61,188 nucleotides of DNA from Patescibacteria group bacterium (GTDB taxonomy: Bacteria > Patescibacteriota > Minisyncoccia > Phycocordibacterales > SBAW01): assembly GCA_016176685.1 (NCBI GenBank), contig JACOWS010000006.1, forward strand, positions 1-61,188, given 5' to 3'. Positions within the stretch are counted from its first letter, which is position 1. Each line of letters opens with the position of its first letter. Shown one piece after another: positions 7,466-46,450 of the stretch. The notes beneath the pieces are model-generated. The model did no database searches and was not told the origin of the DNA. It saw only the letters and a list, made by a program, of their open reading frames with translations. A program made the translations under genes and the position numbers.

Positions 7466-8577
7466 TGCTTACTTAGTATACCGTTTAGAAACCGCTCTAT
7501 CACCCGCTCTACCTCCCTTGCATTATTTGCCTCCATCAATGCTATACGCAACTCTTTGGCGCTGGGGCTAGCCACATACGCCTTAAAATGCTTTTTCATT
7601 ATGGCGAAATTTTTGATGTCGCCCAACAGCTCTTCAAAAAGCTTGGTGTGTTCTACTACTATTCGCAAACGCTCTTCAAGCGAAGGCAAAAAGCTTTGGA
7701 CAAATGGTCTGGCCCGAAGCCCGCCTGAAGGCGGACGAGGGAAACCCGAGGACCTTTGTCCAGAGCTTTTTGCTGAAGCTTCATCGAACAACCACGGCCG
7801 GCCAAAAATGGCGCGGCCGAGCATAATGCCGTCTGCGCCTGTTTCTTGCGCTTTGGCGCGAGCATCGTCAATGCTCAACATATCGCCATTGCCTATAATA
7901 AGCGTTTTGCTTTTCATTTCATCGCGGATCTCGACCGCCTTTTTTATCCGCTCCCAATGCGCGGGTACTTTTGACATTTCTTTGCGGGTACGCGCATGTA
8001 TCGCTATCGCGGCAGGTTCTGCCACAAGGAGCGCCGGTAGCCACTCTTCTAGTGTGTCTTTGTGGTAGCCAAGCCGCGTTTTGACCGAGACAGGCAAATG
8101 CCGCCCGCCGGGCAGACTCCGTCTGGAGACTCTGTCGGAACGAGCACTCTGGGCGGCGCCGCGTTTGGCCGCGGCTATAAGCTCTTGCGCGAGCTGTGGA
8201 TTAAGTATCAGCTTTGCCCCGGCACCCTGTTTTTCTACCACGCGGTCAGGGCAGCCCATATTGATGTCCACGCCGTCAAAACCGAGGCGCGCCGCCAGTA
8301 CCGCGGCTTTTTCCATATGCGCCGGAGTGGCGGTAAAAAACTGCGCCACTATCGGCCGTTCGGTTTCCGTATACAGTAGATCGCGCAAAAGTTTTTGCCT
8401 TCCCGCTTCCGGCGCGAGTGCCAGGCCGTCGGCCGAGACAAATTCCGTCCACAGCACTGCCGGGCCGGCGGGCTTGCTGTACTTTGCTATGATGCGACGA
8501 AAAGCCGCATCGGTGACGTTAGCCAGCGGCGCCAAACAAAAAAACGGCTTAGGTAGTGAGTCCCAAAAGCTTTGCAT
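7462..8577 (-). CDS. dusB: tRNA-dihydrouridine synthase with two in-frame hairpin insertions
   Basis: LAPLANVTD, DINMGCP, VSVKTRLG, AIHART, GNGD and GIMLGRA. Confidence 0.92.
   Translation of the reverse strand: MQSFWDSLPKPFFCLAPLANVTDAAFRRIIAKYSKPAGPAVLWTEFVSADGLALAPEAGRQKLLRDLLYTETERPIVAQFFTATPAHMEKAAVLAARLGFDGVDINMGCPDRVVEKQGAGAKLILNPQLAQELIAAAKRGAAQSARSDRVSRRSLPGGRHLPVSVKTRLGYHKDTLEEWLPALLVAEPAAIAIHARTRKEMSKVPAHWERIKKAVEIRDEMKSKTLIIGNGDMLSIDDARAKAQETGADGIMLGRAIFGRPWLFDEASAKSSGQRSSGFPRPPSGGLRARPFVQSFLPSLEERLRIVVEHTKLFEELLGDIKNFAIMKKHFKAYVASPSAKELRIALMEANNAREVERVIERFLNGILSKQ
7686..7773. repeat. in-frame hairpin element in dus (shares core with the parB element)
   Basis: 19-bp arms 7686-7704 and 7755-7773 (1 mismatch); core GTCTGGCCCGAAGC...GGGAAACCCGAGGAC. 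Confidence 0.85.
8103..8162. repeat. in-frame REP-like element in dus (shared with 37076-37108)
   Basis: GCCCGCCGGGCAGA (14/14) and GAGCACTCTGGGCGGCGCCGC (20/21) match 37076-37108. Confidence 0.75.
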
Positions 8578-8586
8578 GCCAGTACC

Positions 8587-9420
8587 CTACTGCCCTTTTA
8601 GCTTATAGTACAGTTTGTCGCCAAAGCGAAGGTCAAGGTACTCGAAGTCGGGCAAGGCGTGGGTGGTAAACGGCTCGGCGGTGAGTGCCAAGGTAAAGCG
8701 CTCGTATACGTCGGCACTGTTGTCGTCAATGGAAAAGATGAGCAAAAAATCTTGCTGGAAGTACACGCGCGCGTCGCCGCCTTCGTCTACCACTACTTGC
8801 CGCACCGGGTCTTCCGGTTGGGTTTTTCCAATAGCGGCAACCAGGGCAAAGAGGGCGCGATAATTTTTTTCTGTCAGATATTGCGCGGGCAGTGAACCTC
8901 CAGCCAAGAGCGGCGTCGCGGTACCAAAGTACCGCACATAGGCATCGCCGGAAAAGTCGGCTGCAGGCGCATACACCACCCCTCCCTCATCCATTAGCGC
9001 ACAGCCCGTAGAAGAGGCGCCCGCACCGCACCATAGCGCTTGAGGCGCGCGCTCTGCGACCACAACCGCAAGCGTGTCAAAGTTTTCCGCATGCACGATA
9101 GCACTTTTAAGCGCCGGGAATAGTTTAAGCAGGTTTTGCTCGATGGCGCGCTTGGGGTAAAAAAAGATGCTGTCTTTGGGGATAGCGTATAAGTATGCGC
9201 CGGAAATCGCATCGCGTATCGCCTCTCTAACCTGTGCCGTGGTGACACTTTCGGCACCGGAGATGTCGATTGCCGTCACGCGCACAAAAGGCGCATGTAA
9301 AAACCATATTGCTCCGCCACAGAGCACTAGTAAAAGCGCGCCCAACACAAGCGCTATACGCGCGCGGCGCCCTCGGCGCCGCGCGCGCACTTGAGACATT
9401 GGAAAAGAGACGCGAGCCAT
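8587..9420 (-). CDS. ftsQ: FtsQ/DivIB-like cell division protein (POTRA domain)
   Basis: Basic N-terminus, single TM, POTRA-like segment, C-terminal EYLDLRFGDKLYYK; start set at MARVSF. Confidence 0.75.
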   Translation of the reverse strand: MARVSFPMSQVRARRRGRRARIALVLGALLLVLCGGAIWFLHAPFVRVTAIDISGAESVTTAQVREAIRDAISGAYLYAIPKDSIFFYPKRAIEQNLLKLFPALKSAIVHAENFDTLAVVVAERAPQALWCGAGASSTGCALMDEGGVVYAPAADFSGDAYVRYFGTATPLLAGGSLPAQYLTEKNYRALFALVAAIGKTQPEDPVRQVVVDEGGDARVYFQQDFLLIFSIDDNSADVYERFTLALTAEPFTTHALPDFEYLDLRFGDKLYYKLKGQ

Positions 9421-9544
9421 ACCCTTATAGTATAAGCGAAGCAAAAAATAAGATAAAAGTGAGTCCGAGGCGCGTCGGCGCCGAGGCGAGGGAATTTATC
9501 AGCAGGAAATTCCCGCTCATTTTTATATTATTTTTTGCTTCGCC

Positions 9545-10834: not shown

Positions 10835-10861
10835 ATAACTATGGTATATGTGTATCCTACA

Positions 10862-11722
10862 ATGCCATTTCCTATACGACAAATACGGCCACGGGGTTTC
10901 CCCATACTGCTTAAAGAAGTTCCGGACAAGCCGGCGCAGCTCTACATGCGCGGGACACTGCCGCCACCGGAGCACCGGCTCCTGTGCGTGGTTGGCTCGC
11001 GCGCGTGCAGCGCCTATGGCCGTCGGCAGACCCAAAAACTCATCGCCGGACTTGCGCGGGAAAAGGTGGCTATTGTCTCGGGGCTCGCGCTTGGCATAGA
11101 CTCCGAGGCGCACAAAGCGGCGCTCGATGTCGGGCTGCCAACCGTGGCGGTGCTCCCCTCCTCTTGTGACGACGCATCGCTCTACCCCGCTACCAACGCA
11201 GTCCTTGCGGGGCGGATACTTAAGAGTGGCGGCGCCCTGCTTTCCGAGCGTACCGCCCCCTGGAAAGCGCATATACACGACTTTGCCGCTCGCAACCGCA
11301 TTATGGCCGGCATGTCGCAAGCAACTCTTATTATTGAGGCGGGAGAAAAGTCGGGCACGCTCATCACCGCGCGCCTGGCGCTCGACTACAACCGCGAGGT
11401 GCTGTGCATACCGCACGAGCTCGAGCGCATGGGCGGCGCCGGGGCCAACCGGCTTCTGCGGCAAGGGGCAACACTGGTGCAAAACAGTGCCGACATTTTA
11501 GAGGCGCTGGGTTTTACGGCAAGAGCCCCCGTGCAAGCGCCTCTCCCAACCGACCTCACCCCCGAGGAGACGTCGGTGCTCCACACCCTTGCCGAGCCCT
11601 TGGCAAACGACGAGATCATCGAGCGCTCGGGACTCTCGGCACAGGAAGCAAACGCAGCGCTCTCTTCTCTCCTTATCCGCGGGCTCATCGTGGAGCGCCT
11701 GGGTAAAATCGAGCGCCAGTAA
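10862..11722 (+). CDS. dprA: DNA-processing protein DprA/Smf
   Basis: VVGSR, IVSGLALGID, FAARNRIMAG, EAGEKSGTLITA and a C-terminal winged helix; start could be 10841. Confidence 0.94.
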   Translation: MPFPIRQIRPRGFPILLKEVPDKPAQLYMRGTLPPPEHRLLCVVGSRACSAYGRRQTQKLIAGLAREKVAIVSGLALGIDSEAHKAALDVGLPTVAVLPSSCDDASLYPATNAVLAGRILKSGGALLSERTAPWKAHIHDFAARNRIMAGMSQATLIIEAGEKSGTLITARLALDYNREVLCIPHELERMGGAGANRLLRQGATLVQNSADILEALGFTARAPVQAPLPTDLTPEETSVLHTLAEPLANDEIIERSGLSAQEANAALSSLLIRGLIVERLGKIERQ

Positions 11723-11782
11723 AAAAGTAATTCGCCCAACAAATAGTTGACAGGAAGGTTTATTTATAGTAATTAGTAGTAA

Positions 11783-13369
11783 ATGCAATTGAAGATTTCT
11801 GTAAACATTTTGACCTCGCGGGCCATTCAGGCCGGACTCTTGGTATGGCATAGCGCTCTGCGCGTGGGCTTCTGGAAGATAGGTGCCGCGGTGCTGGGCC
11901 TCTTGCTTGGTATAAACGCGGCCGGCCACCTGTTTGGTGCTACAAAAGCCGAACAAGCGGCCACCGACGTGCGCACCGTCTCGGTGCGCACGGTGGCCGA
12001 CCTCGTCAACGAAGGCGAGCCGCTCTCGGTCGCCGGCACGGTAAGTTCCAAGTCGGAAGCATCCGTGCTTGTGCAAAAAACGGGCGGCGTGGTCGGTGTG
12101 TACCATCAGCTCGGCGACTACGTTTCCGCCGGAAGCATTATTGCAGAAATCGACAGTGCGTCCGAGCGCGCGGCCTTGGCGCAGGCGCAGGGGTTGCTTG
12201 ATGCCGCGCGTGCCTCTGGCGGCATTTCGGACACATCTCTCGCCGCCGCGCAAAGTGGTGCCGTAAACACGCTCCTTGCCACCTACGCTATCGTCGACAA
12301 CGCCGTGCGCGGCGGCATAGACCCGATGTTTTCAAACCCAGAAACGGTATACCCGCAATTTAGCGTCCTAAGCTCAAACTCACAGGTAAAAATAGATATA
12401 GAGAACGGGCGCGTGGCACTTTCCCCCCTGCTCGCGCGCGAGCAGGCGCGGGCTACTACACTGGTAAATACCGACGAGCTTGCGGCGGAGCTTGCCGCGA
12501 CCGCAGGAGAGGTGCGTGTAGTGCGTGACTTTTTGGACCAGGTGATTATCACGCTCAACAACGGCATCCCGGCAAACAACATTAGTGCCGCCACCATTGC
12601 TTCGTACAAAGCAACCGCTTCTGCGGCTCGCAGTGCGGTCACCGCGGCGCTCTCCTCGCTCACCGGAGCACAGCAGACACTCACCACGGCAGAGCAAAAC
12701 GCCACCGGCGGGGCCGCCATGTCATCCTCGGCGGGCGCACTGCTTGCGCAAGCACAAGCGGGGCTCAAGGCGGCGGAGATAAATCTTGAAAAAACGCTGA
12801 TACGCGCATCTATTGCCGGCACTATCAACTCGCTTTCGCTCAAGCGGGGCGACTTTGTACAGGCATTTACACCGGCCGCCTCTATCGCCAATAACAATGC
12901 CCTGGAGGTGGTGCTGTATGTAACCGAGGGAGACTCTCGCAACATCCGCGTTGGCGCCAAAGCAATAGTACATGCAGGAAATGGAGCAACTCTTAACGGA
13001 ACGATAACGCGTATTGCGCCGGCACTAGACCCGCTGACAAAAAAAATAGAGGTGCGCGTCGCGGTGGCGGACGAGGCGCACCTGCTCATCAATGGACAGT
13101 CAGTGCTCCTTGCCATTGCCCGCACGCTTGCAACCCCTACGTCCGCGACCTCCCTACCCATCATCATACCCATTGCCGCACTTAAAATCGGCGCCGACGG
13201 CACCAAGATATTTACGGTGAGTGCGAGCTCTAGCGCGGTGGCGCACTCGGTTACGATTGGAGCGCTCCTGGGCGACAAAGTGACCATCAAGGAGGGCCTG
13301 ACTCTCGACATGGAAATAGTGACCGATGCGCGAGGCCTGCAAGACGGCGAGCGGGTATTGGTGCTCTAA
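11783..13369 (+). CDS. RND efflux periplasmic adaptor (HlyD/MFP family) with long helical insert
   Basis: Lipoyl half-motifs VGDYVSAGSIIAEI and IRASIAGTINSLSLKRGDFV; beta-barrel GTITRIAPALDPLTKKIEV; upstream of the AcrB-like gene. Confidence 0.88.
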   Translation: MQLKISVNILTSRAIQAGLLVWHSALRVGFWKIGAAVLGLLLGINAAGHLFGATKAEQAATDVRTVSVRTVADLVNEGEPLSVAGTVSSKSEASVLVQKTGGVVGVYHQLGDYVSAGSIIAEIDSASERAALAQAQGLLDAARASGGISDTSLAAAQSGAVNTLLATYAIVDNAVRGGIDPMFSNPETVYPQFSVLSSNSQVKIDIENGRVALSPLLAREQARATTLVNTDELAAELAATAGEVRVVRDFLDQVIITLNNGIPANNISAATIASYKATASAARSAVTAALSSLTGAQQTLTTAEQNATGGAAMSSSAGALLAQAQAGLKAAEINLEKTLIRASIAGTINSLSLKRGDFVQAFTPAASIANNNALEVVLYVTEGDSRNIRVGAKAIVHAGNGATLNGTITRIAPALDPLTKKIEVRVAVADEAHLLINGQSVLLAIARTLATPTSATSLPIIIPIAALKIGADGTKIFTVSASSSAVAHSVTIGALLGDKVTIKEGLTLDMEIVTDARGLQDGERVLVL

Positions 13370-13381
13370 CCTTCCCCGCCT

Positions 13382-16300
13382 ATGCTCCCCCTTTGGAAAT
13401 TTTTTATAGAAAAGAGGCAGTTCACCATACTGCTTATGTTGGTGCTCTTAGCGTGGGGCAGCGTCGCTACGATACGCATCACCAAAGAGTCTGCTCCGGA
13501 GGTGCAAATACCGGTTGGCATTGTTACCACCGCATTACCGGGTGCCTCCGCGGAAGACATAGAAAAGCTGGTCACCAACAAGCTTGAGCAGAACCTTACC
13601 AGTCTTACCAACCTGGAAAAGCTTACCTCCACCTCTCGCGACGGCGTCTCGGTTATTGTTGCCGAGTTTAGTGCCTCCGCAAACCTAAACCAGTCTATTC
13701 AAGACCTCAAGGACCAAGTAGACAAAGTAAGAGGCGACCTGCCCGCCGATGCCACCGACCCGTCGGTTACCGACGTCAACTTTGTCGACCAGCCGATACA
13801 AATTATCTCCATTACCGCTGACCTGCCATTTGCAAAGTTTGCGGAACTCGGGGAGGAGGTAAAAAATGAGCTGCAGACGGTCCGCGGCGTCTCCAAGGTA
13901 ACTGTTTCCGGCGTGCGCAACCGAGAGATAAACGTTGTGGTCAAAAAAGAGCAGATAGCGCGGTACGGCATTTCCCTTTCGCAGGTGGTTGCGGCCATCT
14001 CGTCCGCAAATGCCTCACTGCCCGTTGGTGCCATCACCGTTGGGAACATCTCCTACAACATTGCGTTTGAAGGAGGTCTCGACACCGTGAGCGCCTTCCA
14101 TAGCATCCCCCTCCTACTGGCCAGCAACCAGGTGGTGTATTTGCGCGACATTGCCGACGTGTCCGACGGAGTAGAAAAAGCGACCTCATACTCGCGGGTA
14201 GCCATAGGGAAAAATCCCAGCCGCCAAGCACTGACGCTTGCGGTGTTTAAAACACACGGGCAAGACGTAACCACTACTACAGGGGGCGTTAAACAAAAAC
14301 TGGACGAACTTACAAACACGCTCCTGCGAGGAAGCGAGATTGTTATTACCTATGACACCGGCGAGGAGGTGGCGAAAGACCTCTATGAACTTACCCGTAC
14401 CGGCATCATTACCATGACCCTGGTTATGCTCGTGCTCTTTGCCACACTCGGTTGGCGCGAGGCGCTGGTGGCGGGTATGTCAGTCCCTTTCTCTTTTCTT
14501 ATCGCGTTTGTGGGGCTCTGGTACTCCGGCAACACGTTTAATTTTGTTTCCCTCTTCTCTCTCATTCTTGCTATCGGCATTTTGGTTGACTCGGGCATCG
14601 TGGTGGTCGAGGCCATACACACCCGAGTTAGGATTTTTGGCGACAAAAAAAAGGCGGCCATACAAGCGCTCGAGGAGTACGCATGGCCACTTATCGGCGG
14701 CACGATGACAACCGTTGCGGTGTTTATACCGCTCTTTTTTATCTCTGGTATTGTAGGCAAATTTATCGCCTCCATCCCCTACACGGTTATCTTTGTGCTT
14801 ATGGCGAGCATCTTCGTGGCGCTGGGGTTTGTTCCTATGTGGGCGATGCTATGTACCTCCACCGGGCGCTCGCCGCTTACCGACCGGCAGGAGCAGTATA
14901 CGGAAAAAATGCGGGTGTGGTACACACAAAAACTCGGCTTATTTTTCAAAAACCGCGCCGCGCAAAACCGCTTTTTGGTCGCTATCTTTGCGAGCTTTAT
15001 ACTTGCGGTACTCCTCCCCATTACCGGCATCATAAAAGTAAACTTTTTTCCGCAGGACGACTCCGACTTTTTGTACGTCGATATCGAGCTCCCCGTCGGT
15101 ACAGAGCTTGAGACAAGCGACCTTTCGGCACGCCAGGTGGAAGAGGCGTTGTATGGCCTTGCGGATGCAGACTCAACCATCACCAGTGTGGGCAACACCA
15201 GTTCATTCGGCAACAACCCGCAAAGCGGCGCGCGGTACGCCAATGTAACCATCAATCTTGCGGCGGACCGCGCACACTCTTCAACCGACATACTCGCCGA
15301 GGTGCAGACTCGTCTCAAAAATATCCACAGCGCAACCATCCGCGCGGGGCAGCCCTCGGGCGGGCCGCCGGTCGGCGCACCCATACTCATACAATTTTTC
15401 GGGCAAGATAGAGACGCGCTTGACCAGGCGCTCTTAGAAGCACAAAGAGCACTGCAAAAAATTTCCGGAATCATCAACATCGACCCGTCAAACAAAAACG
15501 ACGGTACCGAGTTTATCCTCCGCATAAACCGCGACAAAGTGGCGGCGCTGGGGCTCACACCGCAAGCGGTTGCCTTGACCTTGCGCACGGCTATTGCCGG
15601 CTCCAAAGCAACCACGCTAGTGGGCGGCGAGCGCGATGTAAACCTCATGGTCTCACTCAACCTCAACCCTGTGTACACCGACCCGCACGACGCCTCGCGC
15701 GTGTCTCTAGATGCAATACACCAGATACCGATACAAACACCGTCCGGCGCAAGTGTGCTCCTTGGGTCGGTGCTGGAGTCGAGTATCGGGCGCAGTGATG
15801 CGGTTATCAACCACGAAAATCGCCAGCGCGTTGCTTCCATTTCTACCAACCTAGAGGCCCCGCTCACCACGGCAGAAGCCATTGAACAGTTCAACAAAAA
15901 TATGGCGGGCGTAGAGCTGCCGAAAGGGGTAACGATGAAAATCGGCGGAGAAAACGAACAGACTAACCGGTCGTTTGCAGAGATGGGTTTTGCTTTGGTC
16001 GCCGGGTTGGCGCTCATGTTTGTGATATTGGTGCTTGCCTTCAACTCCTTCCGATTTACCACTTACCTGCTTTCCGTCGTGCCGCTTTCGCTCATAGGAG
16101 TCTTTGGCGGGCTGGCGCTCACGGGCCAGGCACTTTCGTTTTCTTCTCTGCTTGGCATCATCGCACTGGCCGGGGTCATAATCAACCACGCCATTATTCT
16201 TATGGACGCTATCATCAAGCGCATGCGGGCAAGCGCCGGGTATGCCTTAAGCGACATCGTGGTTGACGCGGCAGTCTCTCGGCTGCGCCCTATTGTCCTT

Positions 16301-16492
16301 ACCACCGTCACTACCGTTATCGGCATGATTCCGCTCACGACAGTCTCCGCTCTGTGGGGGCCGCTGGCGTTCGCAATACTCTTTGGCCTTTCGTTTGCAA
16401 TGATACTCACACTCGTACTTATCCCCACACTGGTCTACCGCTGGCCTGGAAAATTACCGAGCAACGTTACGCGCGGGGAATACATTTTATAA
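13382..16492 (+). CDS. RND efflux permease (AcrB/AcrD/AcrF family)
   Basis: 1036 aa, 12-TM architecture; LAIGILVDSGIVVVE, GVIINHAIILMD and RLRPIVLTTVTT. Confidence 0.95.
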   Translation: MLPLWKFFIEKRQFTILLMLVLLAWGSVATIRITKESAPEVQIPVGIVTTALPGASAEDIEKLVTNKLEQNLTSLTNLEKLTSTSRDGVSVIVAEFSASANLNQSIQDLKDQVDKVRGDLPADATDPSVTDVNFVDQPIQIISITADLPFAKFAELGEEVKNELQTVRGVSKVTVSGVRNREINVVVKKEQIARYGISLSQVVAAISSANASLPVGAITVGNISYNIAFEGGLDTVSAFHSIPLLLASNQVVYLRDIADVSDGVEKATSYSRVAIGKNPSRQALTLAVFKTHGQDVTTTTGGVKQKLDELTNTLLRGSEIVITYDTGEEVAKDLYELTRTGIITMTLVMLVLFATLGWREALVAGMSVPFSFLIAFVGLWYSGNTFNFVSLFSLILAIGILVDSGIVVVEAIHTRVRIFGDKKKAAIQALEEYAWPLIGGTMTTVAVFIPLFFISGIVGKFIASIPYTVIFVLMASIFVALGFVPMWAMLCTSTGRSPLTDRQEQYTEKMRVWYTQKLGLFFKNRAAQNRFLVAIFASFILAVLLPITGIIKVNFFPQDDSDFLYVDIELPVGTELETSDLSARQVEEALYGLADADSTITSVGNTSSFGNNPQSGARYANVTINLAADRAHSSTDILAEVQTRLKNIHSATIRAGQPSGGPPVGAPILIQFFGQDRDALDQALLEAQRALQKISGIINIDPSNKNDGTEFILRINRDKVAALGLTPQAVALTLRTAIAGSKATTLVGGERDVNLMVSLNLNPVYTDPHDASRVSLDAIHQIPIQTPSGASVLLGSVLESSIGRSDAVINHENRQRVASISTNLEAPLTTAEAIEQFNKNMAGVELPKGVTMKIGGENEQTNRSFAEMGFALVAGLALMFVILVLAFNSFRFTTYLLSVVPLSLIGVFGGLALTGQALSFSSLLGIIALAGVIINHAIILMDAIIKRMRASAGYALSDIVVDAAVSRLRPIVLTTVTTVIGMIPLTTVSALWGPLAFAILFGLSFAMILTLVLIPTLVYRWPGKLPSNVTRGEYIL

Positions 16493-16536: not shown

Positions 16537-18780
16537 ATGAAGTTGGTTATTGTTGAGTCGCCCGCAAAGGCAAAGACTATAGAAAAGTATCTTTCCCACA
16601 TCGACCAGAAGGGCGACTTTGTCGTGCGCGCCTCGGTGGGCCATGTGCGCGACCTGCCCAAGAGCAACAAAAAGGCGATAGATATTGAGGGTGGATTTGT
16701 CCCCCATTACGAGGTGGTGCCGGGAAAAGCGCGGGTTATCCACGAGCTTAGGGAGCTGGCACACAAAGCCGGCGAGGTTATACTGGCGACCGACCCAGAC
16801 CGCGAGGGCGAGGCGATTGCCTGGCACATACAAGAGGAACTGGGGCTTAAAAAACCAAAGAGAATCGTCTTTTACGAAATTACGGAGGAGGCCATAGCGG
16901 AGGCGCTGGCACACCCGCGTACCATTGACGACCACTTGCGGCTGGCACAAGAGGCGCGCCGCGTACTCGACCGGCTCGTGGGCTACGACCTTTCAGGACT
17001 TATATGGAAAAAGGTTCGCTACGGCCTTTCGGCCGGCCGTGTTCAAAGTCCGGCGCTCCGCATCATTATGGAGCGCGAGCGCGAGATACGCGCTTTTAAA
17101 CCGGAAACGTTTTATGTAATCACCGCACAGACAAAAACGCCTAAAAAAGAATCTCTGGTGTTGACCTGTTCTGAAGAGCCAAAAGAAAAGCGGGAATCGG
17201 AGCGCATCATAGCGGCGGTAAAAAAAGACGGGCTTATCGTTGCCGGTGTTACGGAAAGTGAGATGAAGCGCGCCGCCCGCGCACCTTTTACCACTTCAAC
17301 CCTGCAGCAAACGGCCTCAACCAGGCTGGGGTTCTCTCCTCAAAACACGATGCGTATCGCACAAAAGCTGTATGAGGCCGGGCATATTACCTACATGCGC
17401 ACCGACTCAACCAACCTCGGAGCCGCCGCGCAAAGCGCACTACTTGCCCAGGTGGAAAAAAAATACGGCAAAGAGTACGCAGCGGCCAACACCTTTGCCG
17501 CCAAGTCCAAAAACGCGCAGGAGGCGCACGAGGCGGTGCGTCCCACCCACGCGGACAAAGAGTCTATGGGCTCGACCCCCGAGCAGAAAAAACTCTACGA
17601 GCTTATCTGGCGGCGCGCCATCACTTCGCAAATGGCCGATGCAAAACTGCTTAAGACAAAAATCACCGCTCAAGTTCCAAGGGTCGCCCTTGGACATGTC
17701 CAAGGGCGACCCTTGGAACAAATTCCGGAATTTACCGCCAACGGCTCGCGCGTGGTATTTGACGGCTGGCTCCGCGCCGACCCGGCCGCACGCGGCGAAG
17801 ATGTCGAGCTTCCAAAAGTGGAGCAAAAAGAAGCGTTGGTTGTCGAAGAGGTCTCTTCCGAAGAAAAGCAGACCACCCCGCCGCCGCGCTACACCGAAGC
17901 GGGACTTATTAAAGAGTTGGAGAAGCGCGGCATCGGCCGCCCGTCCACTTACGCGAGCATTATGAAGACGCTTGCCGACCGCGGCTACGTGGTAAAAGAG
18001 GGTCGGAGTTTGCAGCCGACCGACACAGGCGACGTCGTTTCCACCTTTTTGGAAAAAAACTTTCCCTCCTACATCAGCGACACCTTTACCGCCGAGATGG
18101 AAGACGAGCTCGACGAAATAGCCGATGGCAAGCGCGAGTACGCAAAGACGCTCCGCGATTTTTATACCCCGTTTCGTAAAGAAGTAAAAATAAAAGACAA
18201 AGAGGCGGGGAAAATAACCGACCTCGGCCCCGCACCAAAAGAGTTTCCCTGTCCGGTATGCGGTGCCGGCATGGTGTTTAAACTCTCGCGCCAAGACACC
18301 TTTATGAGCTGCGCCCGCTTCCCCGACTGTTTGGGTGCGCGTACCGAGAAGGGAGAAGTACTTTTAAACGAGCCGCCAAAACCAATCGGTACGTATCCAG
18401 AAACAGGCGAGCCCATTTATGTGCTTAGCGGGCGCTTTGGCCCGTATGTCCAGGTTGGTGATACGCCGACCGGCAAAGGGTCAAGGTCGAAAAACAAGCC
18501 GCACCGCGCAAGCGTCCCAAAGGGAAAAGTGCCGGAAGAGGTGACTCTTAAAGATGCGTTAAAATATCTTTCGCTCCCGCGCGTGCTGGGCAACCATCCG
18601 GAAACTAATGAGCCCATTTCCGCAAACATCGGGCGCTTTGGCCCGTATGTCGTGCATCAAAAAGACTTCCGCTCGCTCAAAACAGACGATGTCTACACCA
18701 TAGAGCTTCAAAGAGCACTCGAAATTTTGAGAGAGGAAAAAAAGAAGCGCGGCTTCGCGCGCAAAAGTAAAAAGGAGTAG
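16537..18780 (+). CDS. topA: DNA topoisomerase I with an in-frame 46-bp palindrome
   Basis: VIVESPAKAKTI, ATDPDREGE, SAGRVQ, ITYMRTD, GIGRPSTY; Zn ribbon and Toprim C-terminal repeats. Confidence 0.97.
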   Translation: MKLVIVESPAKAKTIEKYLSHIDQKGDFVVRASVGHVRDLPKSNKKAIDIEGGFVPHYEVVPGKARVIHELRELAHKAGEVILATDPDREGEAIAWHIQEELGLKKPKRIVFYEITEEAIAEALAHPRTIDDHLRLAQEARRVLDRLVGYDLSGLIWKKVRYGLSAGRVQSPALRIIMEREREIRAFKPETFYVITAQTKTPKKESLVLTCSEEPKEKRESERIIAAVKKDGLIVAGVTESEMKRAARAPFTTSTLQQTASTRLGFSPQNTMRIAQKLYEAGHITYMRTDSTNLGAAAQSALLAQVEKKYGKEYAAANTFAAKSKNAQEAHEAVRPTHADKESMGSTPEQKKLYELIWRRAITSQMADAKLLKTKITAQVPRVALGHVQGRPLEQIPEFTANGSRVVFDGWLRADPAARGEDVELPKVEQKEALVVEEVSSEEKQTTPPPRYTEAGLIKELEKRGIGRPSTYASIMKTLADRGYVVKEGRSLQPTDTGDVVSTFLEKNFPSYISDTFTAEMEDELDEIADGKREYAKTLRDFYTPFRKEVKIKDKEAGKITDLGPAPKEFPCPVCGAGMVFKLSRQDTFMSCARFPDCLGARTEKGEVLLNEPPKPIGTYPETGEPIYVLSGRFGPYVQVGDTPTGKGSRSKNKPHRASVPKGKVPEEVTLKDALKYLSLPRVLGNHPETNEPISANIGRFGPYVVHQKDFRSLKTDDVYTIELQRALEILREEKKKRGFARKSKKE
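17674..17719. repeat. perfect 46-bp palindrome in topA (REP doublet)
   Basis: GTTCCAAGGGTCGCCCTTGGACATGTCCAAGGGCGACCCTTGGAAC is its own reverse complement. Confidence 0.95.
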
Positions 18781-20341: not shown

Positions 20342-21387
20342 ATTGAGAAGTTTTTCGGGTCAAACGTGTTTTCGTCTATAGTTTTTTCCTCTTCCGAGCG
20401 GTCGTCGAGATACTCCGCAGAAATATCGCCGTCAGCAGAGGCGGCACTGTCCTGCAAAATAGTCTGGCCCGAAGCTCGCTCACCTAGGCGAGCTTCGGGA
20501 GACCCGAGGACTTTTTGCAGGACAGTGCCGCCGGCGTTCTCTTGTTTTATTGAGGTAGCTTTTGCAACCAGCGAGTTGAGCAGTCCGCGCAGGTCGTCCT
20601 CGGTCATAAAGTCTATAGAGACTTTGCCACCGTTCTCCTTTGGCTCTATGGCGACGCGGGTGCCCAATACCTCGGTAAGGTCGCGCTCCATTTGCAAAAT
20701 CTCCGGCGCATAGAGGTACTCTTTTTTGCGCACGCGGTCGGTGGCGATGCGGCGTGCGATAGCCTCTGTGTCGCGCACGGTCAAACGTTTGAGCATAATT
20801 TCTTTAAACAGCACTGCCTGCTCGGCCGGGCGCTCTATAAGCATCAAAAGCGGCCGGGTGTGCCCCTCGTTTATCTTGCCTTCCGCCAGTGCTTGGCGCA
20901 TCTCCTCCGGCAGCCCAAGTATCCGCAGAGAGTTGGAGACATACTCGCGGCTCTTGCCAATTTTGCTGGCAATTTCCGTGTGTTTAAATCCAAACTCTTT
21001 TACCAACTTTTCAAATGCTTGCGCGCGGTCTAAGGGGTTTAAGTCCTCGCGCTGGAGGTTTTCTATAATAGCCAATTCCAGTTTGGTTTTGTCGTCGTCA
21101 AAACCGGCACGGATAAGGACGGGCACTTGAGCTATACCGGCGATTTTTGCGGCGCGCAGGCGCCGCTCGCCGGCTATAAGCTCATACTCGGCAGCCAGCC
21201 CTCCCTCCGCCTTTTCCACCTCGCGGCGCGAGACGGTTAGCGGTTGCAAGACACCATACTGGCGTATGGAGCGCGCAAGGTCGGCCAACTTAGCCTCGTC
21301 AAACTCTTTGCGGGGCTGAAAGGGATTGGGTTTTATCTTGTCTACCTCTATCCAAAAAATCGCGTTGTTGAAAAACTCGGAAGCCAT
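20338..21387 (-). CDS. parB: ParB/Spo0J partition protein with an in-frame hairpin in the C-terminal tail
   Basis: IKPNPFQPRKEF, GVLQPLTV, AGERRLRA and IIENLQREDLNP. Confidence 0.93.
   Translation of the reverse strand: MASEFFNNAIFWIEVDKIKPNPFQPRKEFDEAKLADLARSIRQYGVLQPLTVSRREVEKAEGGLAAEYELIAGERRLRAAKIAGIAQVPVLIRAGFDDDKTKLELAIIENLQREDLNPLDRAQAFEKLVKEFGFKHTEIASKIGKSREYVSNSLRILGLPEEMRQALAEGKINEGHTRPLLMLIERPAEQAVLFKEIMLKRLTVRDTEAIARRIATDRVRKKEYLYAPEILQMERDLTEVLGTRVAIEPKENGGKVSIDFMTEDDLRGLLNSLVAKATSIKQENAGGTVLQKVLGSPEARLGERASGQTILQDSAASADGDISAEYLDDRSEEEKTIDENTFDPKNFSI
20440..20532. repeat. in-frame hairpin element in parB (shares core with dus 7686-7773)
   Basis: Perfect 20-bp arms 20440-20459 and 20513-20532; inner 12-bp stem CCCGAAGCTCGC/GCGAGCTTCGGG. 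Confidence 0.88.
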
Positions 21388-27623: not shown

Positions 27624-27653
27624 TTGACAGCTTCATACTTTAGGGTGTATAAT
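27624..27653 (+). promoter_or_regulatory. consensus sigma70 promoter
   Basis: TTGACA-N18-TATAAT, with exact consensus hexamers. Confidence 0.8.
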
Positions 27654-27726
27654 TACAGGGTCATTGGATTCTCTAATGACCCCTACCACGAGGGCTTCGT
27701 GGATGAAGCACCTTGAGGAGAGAAAC

Positions 27727-27951
27727 ATGGATAGCAAGCGCCAAGGCGAAATCGCCCTTGAGCTGGTGAAGACATACGCCAGCAAAAACGGCCTTCCGAG
27801 CGTCGACGAAGCAAAGCGTCGGTTCGGAAATATCGCCAAGGAAACTGGTATTTCGAAGGAAGAGTTGACGGCGTTCGCCGATGCAATTCTTCCCGACCTC
27901 ATCGGTCGGATCTTCGGATACAAGAGTGTCTCCATGGAAACGTCACGGTAA
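27727..27951 (+). CDS. small hypothetical protein (islet cargo), 74 aa
   Basis: SD GAGGAG before ATG 27727; MDSKRQGEIALELVK...; has its own promoter and terminator. Confidence 0.7.
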   Translation: MDSKRQGEIALELVKTYASKNGLPSVDEAKRRFGNIAKETGISKEELTAFADAILPDLIGRIFGYKSVSMETSR

Positions 27952-28068
27952 ATGACGGATAAGAACTTACCACAACACACAGGTTGAGATCCTCGGATCT
28001 CTTAAAGGGTAATGCTCACTATCCTGCGGGATAGAGAGCGAATAAGAACCTTCCTCGTGTTGGTTACT

Positions 28069-28098
28069 GAACCCCTTGCTTCGGCAAGGGGTTCTTTC
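28069..28098 (+). terminator. intrinsic terminator with UUCG loop
   Basis: GAACCCCTTGC-TTCG-GCAAGGGGTTC-TTTC. Confidence 0.85.
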
Positions 28099-28300
28099 TA
28101 TCCATTTGTAAAGAACCATTGTGTGGGCTTTGCCCACTCGAACCTTTTCCGCCAAAGAAAAATTTGATATTGTCAGCGGTGCGGCTTCGCCGCGCCGTTT
28201 TCCTGCGCGGGGTTTGCGCCGCCGCCCCCACCGGCGGCGCTGGTTCGAGCTATTGCAAGTATTTTGCACCATTTAGGAAATTGCAAGTATTTTGCACCAA

Positions 28301-28338
28301 CGTCAAAAAGTCCCAACTTTTGTTGGGACTTTTTGACG
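28301..28338. terminator. 17-bp perfect inverted repeat, probably the clpB terminator
   Basis: CGTCAAAAAGTCCCAAC-TTTT-GTTGGGACTTTTTGACG, 17 nt beyond the clpB stop. Confidence 0.7.
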
Positions 28339-28355
28339 CCCACCTTTGACTATAC

Positions 28356-33300: not shown

Positions 33301-34833
33301 ATGAGCGAAACGGCCGCGGATAAGGGGGTTCGGCCCCCGATTGTTGCCATTGTGGGACATATAGACCACGGCAAGTCCACCCTGCTCGACTATATTCGAA
33401 AGACCAATGTGGTAGAAGCGGAGGCGGGAGGTATCACCCAACACCTCTCCGCCTACGAAGCCGTGCACAAAAACACAACCGGAGAACATCGCATAACCTT
33501 CCTCGACACGCCGGGGCACGAGGCCTTTAAAGCGATGCGCTCGCGGGGGCTTGAGGTCGCCGACGTTGCTATTTTGGTAGTCTCTGCAGAGGATGGCGTA
33601 AAACCGCAAACGGTAGAGACGCTTAAACTTATTGCCGATACAAAAATTCCTTACATTGTTGCACTCACCAAAATAGACAAACCGGATGCCAATGTAGAAA
33701 AAGCAAAAATGTCTTTGCTCGAGCATGGCGTCTACCTTGAAGGGCTCGGCGGCAACATCCCCTATGTTGCCATTTCAAGCAAGACAGGCGCGGGAGTGCC
33801 GGAGCTGTTGGACCTCATTTTGCTTGCCGCAGAGCTCGAGGGTATCTCCGGAGACCCGGCCGCCCCGCCTAAGGGCGTGGTGCTAGATGCGTACGCCGAC
33901 AGCAAGCGCGGCACCACCGCCACGCTGCTGGTAAAAAACGGCACACTGGAGAGTGGCCAGTTTGTGGTTGCCGGTGATGCGTGGGCTCCGGTGCGGATTA
34001 TGGAAAACTTTTTGGGCAAATCCATACAGCTAGCACTCCCAGGGAGCCCTGCTCGAGTGGTGGGTTTTTCCGCTCTCCCGGCCGCGGGGAGATCGTTTAT
34101 GGTTGTGCATAGTAAAAAAGAGGCAGAGGCACAAGCGCTTGCCAACGCGCCCAAAAAAGCCGGCAGACCCATGCCGGCCGCCCTAGACGCCACCGAGGCA
34201 CAAAGCGAGGAACCGACGCCGCATCTGGTACTCCCTATTGTTATCAAAACAGATGTGGCCGGCATGGGCGATGCGGTTATGCACGAGCTTCGCAAGCTGC
34301 CCCAGAGCGAGCAGTTGGAAATACACCTGGCGCTCCAGGGCGTGGGCCCTATTTCCGAAAACGACGTCAAGCTGGTGGGCGGCGGCAAAACACCCGGGCT
34401 TATCATCGGCTTCAACGTCAAGGCGGATGCCGCGGTACGCGAGGCGGCAGAGCGGCACGGCGTGGTGATAGGTATGTTTGATGTCATCTACAAGCTCGGT
34501 GAGTGGCTCGGCAAAGAGTTTGAGGCGCGCCGGCCCAAAGTGCGCACGGAGGAGCGTACCGCCGCCGCCAAGGTTTTAAAATATTTTAGCGGCGGTAAGG
34601 GCAAGGTGGTCTTGGGCGGCCGAGTCGAGGAGGGCACTTTGGCGTTGGGCGAGGAAGTGTATTTTTTTAGACGCGACCTCAATCTTGGTTCCGGCACCAT
34701 CACCAACCTCCAGGCGCAGAAAAAAGAGGTGAAGCGGGTCGAGGCCGGGGCCGAGTTTGGCGCGCAGATAAAAACATCGGTGGAGCCGGCACCCGGCGAC
34801 AAGTTCGAGGCGCACGCTATCGTATTTAAATAA
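33301..34833 (+). CDS. infB: translation initiation factor IF-2 (short form, no N-terminal domain)
   Basis: [29 protein letters not shown] and IIGFNV; 510 aa. Confidence 0.95.
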
Positions 34834-36812: not shown

Positions 36813-37142
36813 ATGAAAGGGTATGTATACATTCTAAAGGTAAGAAATGGGAATAGATACATTGGATCTACAATAAATTTAGAGAAGAGGGTGCTTGAAC
36901 ATATGAGAGGAAAAGTTTTCTCGACTAAGAATAAGTTACCGGTTACTTTAATGGCTTATAGATTTTTTGAAGATGTAAAAGAAGCTTCACTCTGGGAAAA
37001 AAAGTATAAAAAGAGTCACGGACAGTTGGAAAGAGACATTAAAAAAGGTATATTACTTCTTACTCCAGATGGACTGCCCGCCGGGCAGAGCCCTCTGGGC
37101 GGCGCCGCCCATAGCTCAGTTGGTAGAGCAACTCCCTCTTAA
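36813..37142 (+). CDS. GIY-YIG nuclease whose ORF runs into tRNA-Lys
   Basis: GYVYILK...YIGSTINLEKRVLEH...EKKYKK; the tail derives from a REP-like element and the tRNA 5' half. Confidence 0.85.
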   Translation: MKGYVYILKVRNGNRYIGSTINLEKRVLEHMRGKVFSTKNKLPVTLMAYRFFEDVKEASLWEKKYKKSHGQLERDIKKGILLLTPDGLPAGQSPLGGAAHSSVGRATPS

Positions 37143-37339: not shown

Positions 37340-37424
37340 GCTGGGGTGGCGAAATTGGTAGACGCACCTGCCTTAGGAGCAGGTGGGGCAACCCTTGGAG
37401 GTTCGAGTCCTCTCCCCAGCACCA
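37340..37424 (+). tRNA. trnL: tRNA-Leu(TAG)
   Basis: GCTGGGG acceptor; loop CTTAGGA; variable arm; encoded CCA. Confidence 0.94.
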
Positions 37425-37571
37425 GTTCGGAAATTGCAAGTCATTGAAAGTGCACCCGGCCAAAAATATCGATGCCCGAAGTCTAGTGTACTTGTTTATT
37501 ACTCACGACCGCGAGAGATAAACAAGTTACTTAAGGGTTTTTAAATCCGGTTTTTAAGGGGTTTTTGGGCC

Positions 37572-39130: not shown

Positions 39131-39457
39131 TTAAATCCCGCCGCTGCACACGCCGCCAGGACCTGGTGGAAGGTCGCCGGGGCACAACGAGGCGGGTGCC
39201 CCCGGTAGCGGAAACGTATTTACTATAATCCCCACAATGGCATATGCCGCCACCATTACAAACATCCCCACCAGGCCCCAGAACATATGCTTGCGACCGC
39301 TGTCTATCCCGACGCTCTTGCCGCTTTTGTTAAGATTGAAAAGAAATTCGACTATGCCGAATATAAACACCAAAAGACCCACCGCAAAAAGCAGTAACAA
39401 AAGCGGGTTGATGAGCACGGTCGCTATGTTGTCGACCAAGCTACTTATAGAATCCAT
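39131..39457 (-). CDS. VirB2/TrbC-like pilin
   Basis: LINPLLLLLFAVGLLVFIFGIVEFL...GRKHMFWGLVGMFVMVAAYAIV two-helix pilin pattern. Confidence 0.75.
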   Translation of the reverse strand: MDSISSLVDNIATVLINPLLLLLFAVGLLVFIFGIVEFLFNLNKSGKSVGIDSGRKHMFWGLVGMFVMVAAYAIVGIIVNTFPLPGAPASLCPGDLPPGPGGVCSGGI

Positions 39458-42641: not shown

Positions 42642-42809
42642 TCAACTTGGGAAAAAATAAAGTAACACAGAAAGAAACAGTGTGCCAGCCGTGAGCATTA
42701 CGACTGTAATACCCAAAGCCTCGAAAAATACTTTCGGGTTTATTTTTTCCTCTTTGCGGTGGCGGTACCATTTCGTGCGGGTAGCACGCGCTCCCCAGAA
42801 CGCAGACAT
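42642..42809 (-). CDS. small membrane protein, 55 aa
   Basis: SD AAGGAG before ATG 42809; promoter TTGTCA-N17-TATACT (42877-42849); single C-terminal TM. Confidence 0.55.
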   Translation of the reverse strand: MSAFWGARATRTKWYRHRKEEKINPKVFFEALGITVVMLTAGTLFLSVLLYFFPS

Positions 42810-42923: not shown

Positions 42924-42953
42924 TATTCCGGTATTCTGCAGAATACCGGAATA
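42924..42953. repeat. perfect 30-bp intergenic palindrome
   Basis: TATTCCGGTATTCTGCAGAATACCGGAATA. Confidence 0.9.
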
Positions 42954-45519: not shown

Positions 45520-45520
45520 A

Positions 45521-45781
45521 TCAGTTGTTGAAAACGCTCGTGGTGGCCACTTCTAACCCGTTTGTTTGTGTTTGATAGTTCACCACTGCGGCGGTCTGTG
45601 TGCTGTCAGCGCCGCCTATAGCGCTGGGGTTGCCCGTGCCAGGGTTGGCAAGCCGCACGCCAAGAGACGCCGCCCAGGTGACAAAAAGCACTGTAGTGAG
45701 CGCGCCCGCCGCGCGCATGGCAAACTGCCGCCTCTCGTGCGGGGCCGTGTTTTCCTGCAGATGTTTAAAATATTTTTTCAT
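45521..45781 (-). CDS. small single-pass membrane protein
   Basis: 86 aa, one TM, in the operon upstream of gyrA. Confidence 0.65.
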
Positions 45782-45787
45782 CTTTCT

Positions 45788-46450
45788 CTATGCACTCAAC
45801 ACTATAACCTCGCCCTCTTTGCCCTCCAGATCTTTTTTCTTTACCGTCAGTTTGTCTATCGGTACTACCTCCTCTGCTCCGGCCTCTTTAAGAAACGCTT
45901 TAAGCGCGCCTGGCTCGCAGCGACCTGAAGGTAGGTCATAGCCCATAGGCACCACTGCCTTCGGCTCCAATTGTACCGCAAGCTTGTATGCCTCGCTCGC
46001 ATCAAGCATCCCCGAGCCCCCTATGGGGACAAAAAGTATGTCGATGTCGTCGAGCTCTTGGAGCGCCTCCTTGGAAAGGGCCAGGTTGCCCAAGGCGCCC
46101 AAAAAAACCAGGTTCATCCCTTCAAAAAGGATACTATATACAGTATTGAGTCCCCTTTCTCCACCCGCCTTGCCGGCAGAAAGGTCGTAGCTGGTTTCCG
46201 AGGCAAAACCGCGCACCGCCACTCCCTTGACTTCGTACTCGCCGGGGCCCTGTATGGCAAACGGTTCGCGCTCGCCGTACACGCAATTTTCTACCCCGTT
46301 AAAGTCCTCGTGGTTGTAGGAAACGAGCACAATGTCGGAGCCGAATTTTGGCGACTTAAGGTCGGAGTCTTTGGAGGGCGGGTTGAGAGCTATGGTGAGC
46401 TCCCCTTGCGATATCTTGAAGCACTCACCCCCCAAATAGGTTATCACCAT
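45788..46450 (-). CDS. MBL-fold protein (Lactamase_B_3-like), degenerate metal motif
   Basis: MVITYLGGECFKI; VSYNHEDFN in place of SHxHxDH; GPGEYEVKGV; DILFVPIGG; VVPMGY. Confidence 0.8.
   Translation of the reverse strand: MVITYLGGECFKISQGELTIALNPPSKDSDLKSPKFGSDIVLVSYNHEDFNGVENCVYGEREPFAIQGPGEYEVKGVAVRGFASETSYDLSAGKAGGERGLNTVYSILFEGMNLVFLGALGNLALSKEALQELDDIDILFVPIGGSGMLDASEAYKLAVQLEPKAVVPMGYDLPSGRCEPGALKAFLKEAGAEEVVPIDKLTVKKKDLEGKEGEVIVLSA

Follow-up and report, generated by a model that had tools for sequence, protein, structure and literature searches.

The Rickettsia palindromic elements (RPEs) are short palindromic repeats of several families, present in a reduced genome, many copies of which lie in frame in unrelated housekeeping genes and are read through as additional peptides at positions compatible with the protein fold (PMC10969869). 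REP and REPIN sequences are non-autonomous hairpins that usually lie at the ends of genes; they are presumed to act as folded single-stranded DNA and are mobilised in trans by a single-copy RAYT (TnpA_REP) HUH transposase (PMC3116915, PMC3479197, PMC6006769). MITEs, among them ERIC, Correia/NEMIS, BOX and Nezha, are small repeats that do not code for protein, have inverted ends and occasionally form in-frame fusions (PMC10969869). Template switching, a mutational process, makes imperfect inverted repeats more perfect (PMC7202029, PMC3820800).

The searchable literature yielded no description of repeats of palindromic or hairpin type from Patescibacteria, CPR or Parcubacteria. Patescibacteria account for much of bacterial diversity, and selfish DNA is thought to be scarce in their tiny, dense genomes. 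We analysed contig JACOWS010000006.1 (GCA_016176685.1) from an ultra-small groundwater bacterium of the Patescibacteria, and refer to the whole stretch of 61,188 nt as the window. Families of hairpin repeats are present in the window, with elements of about 35-118 nt, and several of these lie in frame within housekeeping genes. We consider it likely that they represent several families of small mobile hairpin repeats specific to Patescibacteria, similar to REP, MITE and RPE sequences and tolerated in protein loops.

Results

An earlier note on this DNA had listed 12 hairpins within open reading frames and ascribed them to a repeat system. The supported sites do belong to repeat families and are not private oddities, and about half of those listed proved robust. 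The strong in-frame set comprises six elements, at dus 7686-7773, topA 17674-17719, parB 20440-20532, miaA 23317-23350, and iscS 32207-32286 and 32644-32734. Three further sites, dus 8103-8162, miaA 23944-23966 and 37062-37108, are genuine as insertions or as a further copy of a repeat but fold weakly; one, miaA 23618-23640, is weak, and two are attributable to chance: the clpB site (29704-29722) shows no indel relative to its relatives and a fold of only -7 kcal/mol, and the site in the MBL-fold gene (46164-46184) folds at -4 kcal/mol. With the exception of parB, the strong sites are extra relative to close orthologues, as had been suggested for most sites, and the reading frame is kept in all. 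The description of the host genes as essential was loose, since model bacteria can do without dus, miaA and clpB.

The excess of palindromes was evaluated against a null in which synonymous codons were shuffled in all called genes (100 shuffles). Ten stems of at least 12 bp were observed against 0.30 expected, while stems of at least 14 bp were found five times in the window and never in the 100 shuffles; 10-bp stems numbered 27, with 5.8 expected. Long stems in the window are far in excess of this null. The word GCCCGCC was rejected as a family signature, being barely enriched (27 observed, 19 expected, with 3 of the 100 shuffles reaching 27). Inverted repeats in IF-2 (34168-34268), in clpB (30184-30268), and at 39321-39406 and 42650-42750 were set aside as native conserved sequence or doubtful or membrane ORFs, and not inserts.

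Family B has three copies in the window. At iscS site 2 (32207-32286; element on the + strand, gene on the - strand), 14-bp arms enclose the loop GTAAGACTTGGCCTAGCGGCCCGGAGCGC, read on the + strand. This site is empty in relative L001, compared with which the window carries an additional 78 nt, whereas L003 has the same stem but a flipped element. At iscS site 1 (32644-32734, + strand), arms of 17-22 bp enclose a variant loop containing GGGTCTTTAGC, and relatives have either different elements or a truncated remnant of B here. The third copy (54433-54506, loop on the - strand) is intergenic, between ftsZ and trxB. Across Patescibacteria genomes we counted approximately 78 hairpin-embedded copies of the B core, in records labelled Adler-, Kaiser- and Paceibacteria, Minisyncoccia, Peregrini- and Peribacteria, and Nanosyncoccus. 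Not all of these labels can be trusted (L009 carries the label 'Saccharibacteria' but shows 81% protein identity to a Kaiserbacteria record), which makes the taxonomic breadth of the family more doubtful than the names imply.

Family B combines a near-constant 29-nt loop, whose constancy is in part a product of the search pattern, with covarying stems. Each of the 12 stem positions adjoining the loop is Watson-Crick paired in 80-98% of cases, and all four pair types occur at 11 of them. Stems are specific to the copy, with a degenerate consensus in the outer stem, GAGCCGGCAAG, and a conserved GA...GA at the foot, where GA is found on both sides. These flanks are compatible with either a 2-bp duplication or paired G·A mismatches. 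In young subfamilies (L014, L030, L044, L057, L086, L111), whole stems are common to several loci and genomes, indicating that the stem travels with the loop. The loop bears only a superficial resemblance to the tRNA D-arm or 5S rRNA, and an origin from either was rejected.

Mismatches within the hairpins are strongly biased when read on the loop strand. There were 96 G·T against 35 A·C mismatches (p = 1e-7; 41 against 9 when counted by element), and 172 purine·purine against 56 pyrimidine·pyrimidine mismatches. The bias was equal whether the loop strand was sense (40/13) or antisense (31/4) to the host gene, and this independence from gene direction is best read as folding of the hairpins as one DNA strand.

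The distribution of family B, the one family counted in this way, does not bear out the earlier proposal that a repeat system is colonising coding space. About three quarters of the copies (~55) lie between genes and ~18 lie in ORFs, so that these are mainly gene-boundary elements, with occasional survivors inside genes. Some of the occupied operon gaps are tight (gatC|gatA, adk|map, greA|aaRS), which would suit elements that are not selfish and are maintained by the host, as a structured RNA or as a single-stranded DNA site of a conserved Patescibacteria protein with a role in processing, termination, nucleoid organisation or replication, the in-gene copies being by-products. A near-constant loop on covarying stems, and a fold that is specific to one strand and contains conserved G·A mismatches, also argue for a host function, as does the gap between an aaRS gene and prsW. 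This gap is occupied in both L009 and L025, whose flanking genes share 81% protein identity, and there the element has stayed at the same site with the same loop, on stems that are entirely different. However, orientation relative to transcription is random, at 16:19 between tandem genes and 9:9 inside genes, making an mRNA-level signal unlikely. Presence, absence and orientation vary among close relatives, no function is plausible for copies in coding loops, no Rfam family matches, and subfamilies with the same stems at unrelated loci resemble the outcome of recent copying. We therefore regard maintenance for a host function as unlikely, and favour mobile repeats.

How the in-gene copies are accommodated is suggested by their reading frames. 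All in-gene B copies are open, add a length that is a multiple of three, and use four stop-free frames only. Among the peptides encoded, only the ten residues specified by the loop recur, in four frames. B peptides are found in 15 of 120 IscS and 6 of 120 MiaA orthologues, in the same loops. In the AlphaFold model of IscS, both inserts map to low-confidence loops, with pLDDT <50 at residues 185-201 (site 1) and 328-349 (site 2); elsewhere in the model such values are confined to residues 259-272, residues 384-389 and the N-terminus. Orthologue alignments and this model agree with the earlier suggestion that frame is kept and that the proteins appear to tolerate the inserts in loops.

The other possibility raised at that time, removal at the RNA level, would involve intron-like excision from the transcript through a bulge-helix-bulge or a small ribozyme, yielding proteins that lack the extra peptides. 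A long helix would indeed join the flanks of each copy, and the loop is conserved. However, excision would not call for copies that are invariably open, a multiple of three in length and confined to stop-free phases, and no gene was split by a stop-containing copy (five candidate pairs tested were distinct neighbouring genes). The strand favoured for folding is antisense to the mRNA in half of the in-gene copies. Rfam searches returned tRNAs alone at curated thresholds and noise at permissive ones, with no match to a ribozyme or intron model. Removal is thus scarcely credible, and the in-gene copies would, as judged from sequence, be read through as floppy or disordered extra peptides.

Family A is represented by two hairpins that have a core in common. 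The first lies in dus (7686-7773; + strand, gene on the - strand), has 19-bp outer arms with one mismatch and a predicted fold of -50.7 kcal/mol, and contains a conserved asymmetric internal loop, TGG / A[A/G]ACCCGAG, plus a nested inner hairpin. At the same dus site, L005 and L007 carry another hairpin, which is flipped between these two relatives (95% nucleotide identity). The second (20440-20532; + strand, gene on the - strand) lies in the C-terminal tail of parB, with 20-bp arms and a fold of -71.9 kcal/mol, and corresponds to residues 286-316, C-terminal of the ParB_C domain. Family A was seen only in the lineage of the window and in one other genome, L099. A metagenome scan with the family-A core gave 47 matches, none in a hairpin context, and these were therefore dismissed as chance.

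Family D (direct-repeat family D12) comprises two weak hairpins. A GC-rich insert in dus (8097-8162) makes the gene a net 51 nt longer than in relatives of 88% nucleotide identity and is missing from L005 and L007. The second copy (37062-37108), relative to which the dus insert has a nested extra block of ~30 nt, forms the tail of the AT-rich GIY-YIG gene and abuts or overlaps the start of a tRNA-Lys. Family C is an intergenic hairpin of 108 nt (9436-9543) between an ftsQ-like gene and serS, with 28-bp arms and a fold of -55 kcal/mol; its relatives have kept the core, with a mirrored block replaced in both arms. This hairpin and the family-B copy at 54433-54506 had been overlooked in the first reading.

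The palindromes of topA and miaA do not contain these cores. In topA, a perfect 46-nt palindrome (17674-17719) encodes VPRVALGHVQGRPLE; TopA has 14 residues at this point, against 3 (KDK) in most orthologues. The palindrome consists of two CCAAGGG-NNN-CCCTTGG mini-hairpins, inverted to form a doublet, and shows three mirrored double changes relative to L005, L006 and L008. A perfect 34-nt palindrome in miaA (23317-23350) lies in an insert of ~12 residues (SDLIYQVTF...) and differs from L008 by one mirrored A-T to G-C change that alters the amino acid on both sides. Two smaller sites are present in the same gene. The hairpin at 23618-23640, with a 10-bp stem, is on its own weakly above chance; it falls in the hypervariable MiaA loop that holds family-B elements in other lineages. 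At 23944-23966, a 21-nt in-frame insert encoding seven residues (PPDSRAG) forms an imperfect mini-hairpin; the insert is patchy among MiaA orthologues, and the mini-hairpin is not conserved in L008.

Perfect palindromes with no common core, and mirrored multi-base changes that even alter amino acids, could indicate that the topA, miaA and small GC-rich inserts are immobile and arose locally by template switching (fold-back copying), which would also keep their arms perfect. This process is known to generate inverted copies and to make quasipalindromes perfect (PMC7202029, PMC3820800, 10.1101/2021.11.26.470150). However, the sequence of the ancestral KDK loop is matched by neither arm of the topA palindrome. 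Moreover, the CAAGGG/CCCTTG unit recurs as an inverted doublet (CAAGGG-NNN-CCCTTG) in another gene, at IscS site 1 of L003, which points to a repeat family, and an 'SDLIYQ'-like peptide lies near the same position in the more distant MiaA orthologue P0251. A purely local origin is, in our estimate, quite improbable. We propose instead that the core-less palindromes are REPIN-like doublets of short inverted hairpins and part of the same phenomenon as the families.

Changes between close relatives were seen at several of these sites. Mirrored arm changes numbered three in TopA and one each in ParB (present in L006 and L008), MiaA and Dus, and whole elements were flipped in iscS (the window against L003) and in dus (L005 against L007). 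Turnover is seen in the stems at the aaRS|prsW gap, which differ entirely between L009 and L025, and in the block swapped in both arms of the family-C element. A single recent event is clean, namely a mini-insert of 33 nt in L005 that carries a CCGGGC direct repeat; for a full-size element, no clear case of a target-site duplication or of a clean empty/filled pair was found among the relatives compared. When contigs of four groundwater runs were compared with the window, the organism was present at ~100x in two runs and contigs ended at palindromes; no joints skipping the palindromes were seen in these contigs. The earlier remark that no mobilising enzyme is visible in the window also stands, since searches with Pfam and NCBIfam, covering most but not all called ORFs, identified no transposase or HUH enzyme there.

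Discussion

The following sequence of events would account for mobile hairpin repeats of this kind. The element would consist of a long stem around a recognition module, which may be the near-constant 29-nt loop in family B and the asymmetric internal loop in family A. We infer that mobilisation acts in trans on one folded strand of DNA, through an HUH/RAYT-like or IS200/IS605-like enzyme whose recognition features would be the G·A mismatches of the stem foot and the conserved loop. Gene boundaries would be the main landing places of new copies. Those landing inside genes would persist only where a permissive surface loop, a length that is a multiple of three and a stop-free phase coincide; the frame usage and loop positions behind this step were observed, and translation is what we infer from them. 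Whole elements flip, as was seen between close relatives, and the arms would drift yet stay complementary. The mirrored changes observed are consistent with such drift, the cause of which may be template switching between arms during replication (quasipalindrome correction) or selection on the fold. Fast turnover of sites would leave different elements or stems at the same place in close relatives.

A bolder reading, possible if doubtful, is that Patescibacteria encode an undescribed hairpin-handling enzyme, which would recognise structure on single-stranded DNA and repeatedly excise, invert or rewrite hairpins at preferred docking sites, so that IscS, MiaA and Dus would switch loop peptides. 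Such machinery is suggested by the near-constant loop, the measured stem with its G·A foot and the folding of one strand, together with flips that are frequent and stems that are quickly replaced while their sites stay fixed.

If mobile repeats are indeed involved, they would be a second, independent instance of the Rickettsia phenomenon and a marker of recent genome change in uncultured lineages. They would also account for many of the 'lineage-specific insertions' in Patescibacteria proteins, and for assembly breaks at hairpin sites. The strand-biased fold and the near-constant loop point to a specific recognition partner, still to be found.

Comparison with known systems

Quasipalindrome template switching accounts for the mirrored changes and for outward growth of perfect stems in the absence of selection. 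It is, however, a mutational process and not an element, and leaves the common loop at unrelated loci unexplained. MITEs are similar to the elements described here in being small repeats with inverted ends; the terminal inverted repeats here are loosely conserved, as the degenerate outer-stem consensus GAGCCGGCAAG indicates, and no parent insertion sequence or target-site duplication was identified.

REP sequences are resembled in that family B is mostly extragenic and shows a strand-specific mismatch bias on the loop strand, consistent with a putative activity on that strand. A REPIN is a doublet of inverted short palindromes, an arrangement found in the topA palindrome and at IscS site 1 of L003, but not in families A, B and C. 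Unlike REP sequences, the elements have no 5' GTAG and carry GA on both sides of the foot, and what is recognised would be the 29-nt loop together with the G·A mismatches of the foot rather than any conserved stem. Their stems are much longer (20-39 bp) and copy-specific, and in-gene copies are common.

The comparison with RPEs drawn in the earlier note is apt. RPEs are ~150 bp long, compared with 35-118 nt for the Patescibacteria elements, and belong to a host of a different phylum. Unlike in RPEs, conservation is confined to the loop or internal loop, and stems vary by copy, so that no single peptide is conserved along the whole element; most copies of family B are intergenic, and flips and a strand-biased fold were observed in the Patescibacteria elements. 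The two are nevertheless alike in being multi-copy palindromic repeats of several families that lie in frame in unrelated protein genes.

Strong hairpins in the window

An earlier note had listed 12 palindromes lying in frame within genes between 7686 and 46184. When the listed sites were folded, six were striking: the dus (7686-7773) and parB (20440-20532) hairpins of 88-93 nt, the two iscS hairpins (site 1, 32644-32734, and site 2, 32207-32286) of 80-91 nt, and the perfect palindromes of topA (17674-17719, 46 nt) and miaA (23317-23350, 34 nt). The others were weaker, and the clpB (29704-29722) and MBL (46164-46184) sites could not be told from chance. Gene names from the same note agreed with Pfam (Dus, TopA, ParB, MiaA, ClpB, IscS-type desulfurase, GIY-YIG domain and MBL-fold). 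A scan of the whole window identified 12 strong inverted repeats, 7 of them within ORFs, namely the six striking sites and one inside an ftsQ-like gene (9359-9387). Synonymous codons were shuffled within each called gene in 100 shuffles to give the null; 10 stems of at least 12 bp were observed against 0.30 under this null, and five of at least 14 bp against none in the 100 shuffles. Two hairpins had been overlooked: the iscS core occurs a third time, in the ftsZ-trxB gap (54433-54506), and a 108-nt intergenic hairpin (family C) lies at 9436-9543.

The dus and parB hairpins (family A) have in common a conserved asymmetric internal loop (5' TGG; 3' A[A/G]ACCCGAG) that encloses an inner hairpin differing between them; both iscS hairpins and the ftsZ-trxB copy carry the loop GTAAGACTTG...CGGCCCGGAGCGC (family B). 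Among the weaker sites, dus 8103-8162 is a true insertion (+51 nt compared to relatives) that folds poorly; a second copy of this GC-rich element (family D, 8097-8162 in dus) lies at 37062-37108, in the tail of the AT-rich GIY-YIG gene, and runs into tRNA-Lys. The miaA site at 23944-23966 is a 7-residue insert, patchy across orthologues, and at 23618-23640 a hypervariable loop carries a 10-bp stem. Two further structures fell outside the repeat families: upstream of gyrA, a perfect 30-nt palindrome (TATTCCGGTATTCTGCAGAATACCGGAATA; 42924-42953) that may be an operator, and downstream of clpB, a terminator-like hairpin with a 17-bp stem (28301-28338).

Inserts coincide with variable protein loops

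IscS aligned with solved structures in three blocks, and both gaps coincided exactly with the two hairpins. Across 20 aligned sequences (the window and 19 orthologues), both positions were hot spots of variable length, and two orthologues were insert-free at both. Site 2 was empty in the related genome L001 (GGC CCA AAA ATT AGG ATT; 74% protein identity), and the window has 78 additional nucleotides there. An AlphaFold model of IscS was confident overall (pTM 0.80), with pLDDT below 50 at both inserts (185-201 and 328-349) and also at 259-272, 384-389 and the N-terminus. At the TopA palindrome the window has 14 residues, compared to three (KDK) in most of the 50 nearest orthologues, and unrelated inserts occupy this loop in ~10 other lineages. 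The MiaA palindrome corresponds to an insert of ~12 residues common to orthologues down to 73% identity, and the ParB element is in the C-terminal tail, beyond the last domain.

Peptides derived from family B were present in 15 of the 120 nearest IscS orthologues, confined to the same two loops. Both insertion phases were present at each loop, indicating that each was hit at least two times independently. Such peptides were also found in one loop of MiaA (6/120 orthologues), and in none of 120 TopA orthologues. Among the matches listed, in-gene copies used all four stop-free loop phases (GKTWPSGPER, VRLGLAARSA, ALRAARPSLT and RSGPLGQV) and never the two that contain stops; removal of the hairpins at the RNA level is very unlikely.

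Family B recurs in Patescibacteria records, and its fold is strand-biased

Scanning one genome per species with the family-B pattern returned at least 116 stretches, of which at least ~78 were embedded in hairpins of 12-39 bp. The latter, among the matches listed, came from records labelled Adler-, Kaiser- and Paceibacteria, Parcubacteria, Minisyncoccia, Peregrinibacteria, Peribacteria, Nanosyncoccus and 'Saccharibacteria'. Some TPA_asm MAG labels are unreliable for taxonomic spread, since a class I aminoacyl-tRNA synthetase of L009, labelled 'uncultured Candidatus Saccharibacteria', is 81% identical to that of the Kaiserbacteria record L025, in an identical gene order. Matches in GC-rich non-Patescibacteria had odd spacing and no hairpin, and were set aside as chance. 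The 19 specified loop bases are constant by construction of the search pattern, and independent evidence for loop conservation comes only from the unspecified positions, GT[A/T/G][A/G] and GCC[T/A/G]AG. Family A is known only from the window lineage and one other genome (L099), and a scan of the metagenome collection with its core gave chance matches only. No Rfam family matched the repeats, and full-text literature searches turned up no account of repeats of this kind in Patescibacteria.

Each of the 12 base pairs adjoining the family-B loop was Watson-Crick in 80-98% of the matches listed, in which all four pair types occurred at 11 of the 12 positions. Outer stems are copy-specific, yet follow a loose consensus, GAGCCGGCAAG. 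In some subfamilies (L014, L030, L044, L057, L086 and L111) the entire stem is common to different loci and genomes, indicating that the stem travels with the loop. The foot, or outer end of the stem, has GA at both its 5' and 3' sides, with pairing often continuing further out, a pattern consistent with G·A mismatches in tandem on the strand that carries the loop. Among the matches listed, ~18 copies were in ORFs, 35 in gaps between tandem genes, 13 in convergent and 7 in divergent gaps. Tandem-gap copies that were examined occupied tight spaces separating distinct housekeeping genes (greA|aaRS, gatC|gatA, adk|map and aaRS|prsW), and none of these cases was a gene split by the element.

Non-canonical stem positions, among the matches listed, comprised 96 wobble G·T pairs on the strand carrying the loop against 35 A·C on the other strand (p = 1e-7); the bias was 41 against 9 when counted by element and 80 against 25 with similar stems removed, and mismatches were purine·purine in 172 cases and pyrimidine·pyrimidine in 56. 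In the same matches the loop strand was oriented at random with respect to host transcription (16:19 in tandem gaps, 9:9 in genes), and the G·T/A·C bias was equally strong in same-sense (40/13) and opposite-sense (31/4) copies. It follows that the fold is a property of the strand of the element itself and not of host mRNA. The main rival explanation is a host function for the family-B loop; a role in the host transcript is at odds with a fold tied to the element's strand. Such a fold is in line with a single-stranded DNA stage.

Arm changes, flips and turnover among close relatives

Close relatives were compared at 85-95% nucleotide identity. Three double changes (positions 8/39, 12/35 and 21/26), all of which leave the arms paired, separate the topA palindrome from those of L005, L006 and L008, and several of them alter the amino acid. 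A single mirrored arm change was seen in each of three other hairpins: those of parB and miaA, and the one at the dus site in L005 and L007. The intergenic family-C element kept its core and showed mirrored replacement of a 6-7-bp block in its two arms. The window and L003 had identical outer stems at iscS site 2, with the inner imperfect stem and loop reverse-complemented; the dus sites of L005 and L007 (95% identical) likewise had the same outer stem and a reverse-complemented inner stem and loop. Inversion of the segment between perfect inverted arms is a known outcome of such repeats.

The contents of iscS site 1 were a family-B element in the window, a doublet palindrome in L003, another hairpin in L004, and in L001 a truncated family-B remnant with an arm matching the element that L004 has at site 2. 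At an orthologous site in L009 and L025, loop and flanks were kept and the stem bases were all different. Recent in-frame GC-rich hairpin inserts were found in dus of L005 (33 nt, with a CCGGGC direct repeat) and gyrA of L001 (30 nt). A perfect 20-nt palindrome, CCTGCCTGCCGGCAGGCAGG, lies within the 3' internal loop of the family-A element of L099 (7640-7790), showing that a hairpin element can have a small palindrome nested in it; an extra ~30-nt block is nested inside the dus family-D element.

During replication of quasipalindromes, template-switching copies one arm from the other, so that imperfect repeats become perfect (PMC7202029; PMC3820800); mirrored arm changes do not by themselves imply that the structure is under selection. 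Either selection or repeated copying from fold-competent masters is required to account for the strand-biased mismatches and the G·A foot.

Source genome and other features of the window

The window belongs to a Patescibacteria genome; its TopA shares 94% identity with the TopA of a Candidatus Adlerbacteria MAG, and the window DNA is present in groundwater metagenome runs, at ~100x in two. Coding density is ~89% (called genes), with 10 tRNA genes. A segment of ~4.7 kb (11716-16485) with genes for an HlyD-type adaptor and for an RND transporter of AcrB type was missing from the otherwise collinear L005, L006 and L007, making the efflux pair a lineage-specific gain or loss. At clpB 28653, an in-frame stretch of 24 bases (ACTACCTCTTGTATCTGGATGCCG) missing from the window is present in contigs of three source-like runs and in L003, and is either an assembly or a strain variant.

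In the region 27128-28340, tRNA-Tyr is followed by three small ORFs without a family match, and two identical 23-nt direct repeats (27208-27230 and 28266-28288) enclose these ORFs. A further copy, 91% identical, follows tRNA-Leu (37419-37441), and an identical 31-nt pair lies at 27296 and 27532. The layout of the region resembles that of a small integrated element whose attachment-site repeats lie where tRNA genes have their 3' ends. The gene at 36813-37104 (~33% G+C), adjoining tRNA-Lys, encodes a GIY-YIG domain and nothing more, weakly similar to group I intron endonucleases; in L001 this place is taken by a methyltransferase gene, so that the GIY-YIG gene is probably what remains of a horizontal acquisition. 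Two small minus-strand ORFs have starts that overlap a 60-nt direct repeat, whose copies (57190-57249 and 57984-58043) are 90% identical and 794 bp apart.

Relation to known mobile elements

The simplest account of these observations would be that the repeats are non-autonomous mobile hairpins, tolerated in frame within protein loops. Pfam and NCBIfam calls covering most of the called ORFs revealed no transposase-like protein in the window, in keeping with the earlier note, which saw no mobilising enzyme there. REP/REPIN, MITE and RPE elements are analogues of such hairpins, and REP/RAYT and IS200/IS605 systems have a single-stranded DNA stage of the kind that the strand-biased fold would fit (PMC6006769, PMC3479197).
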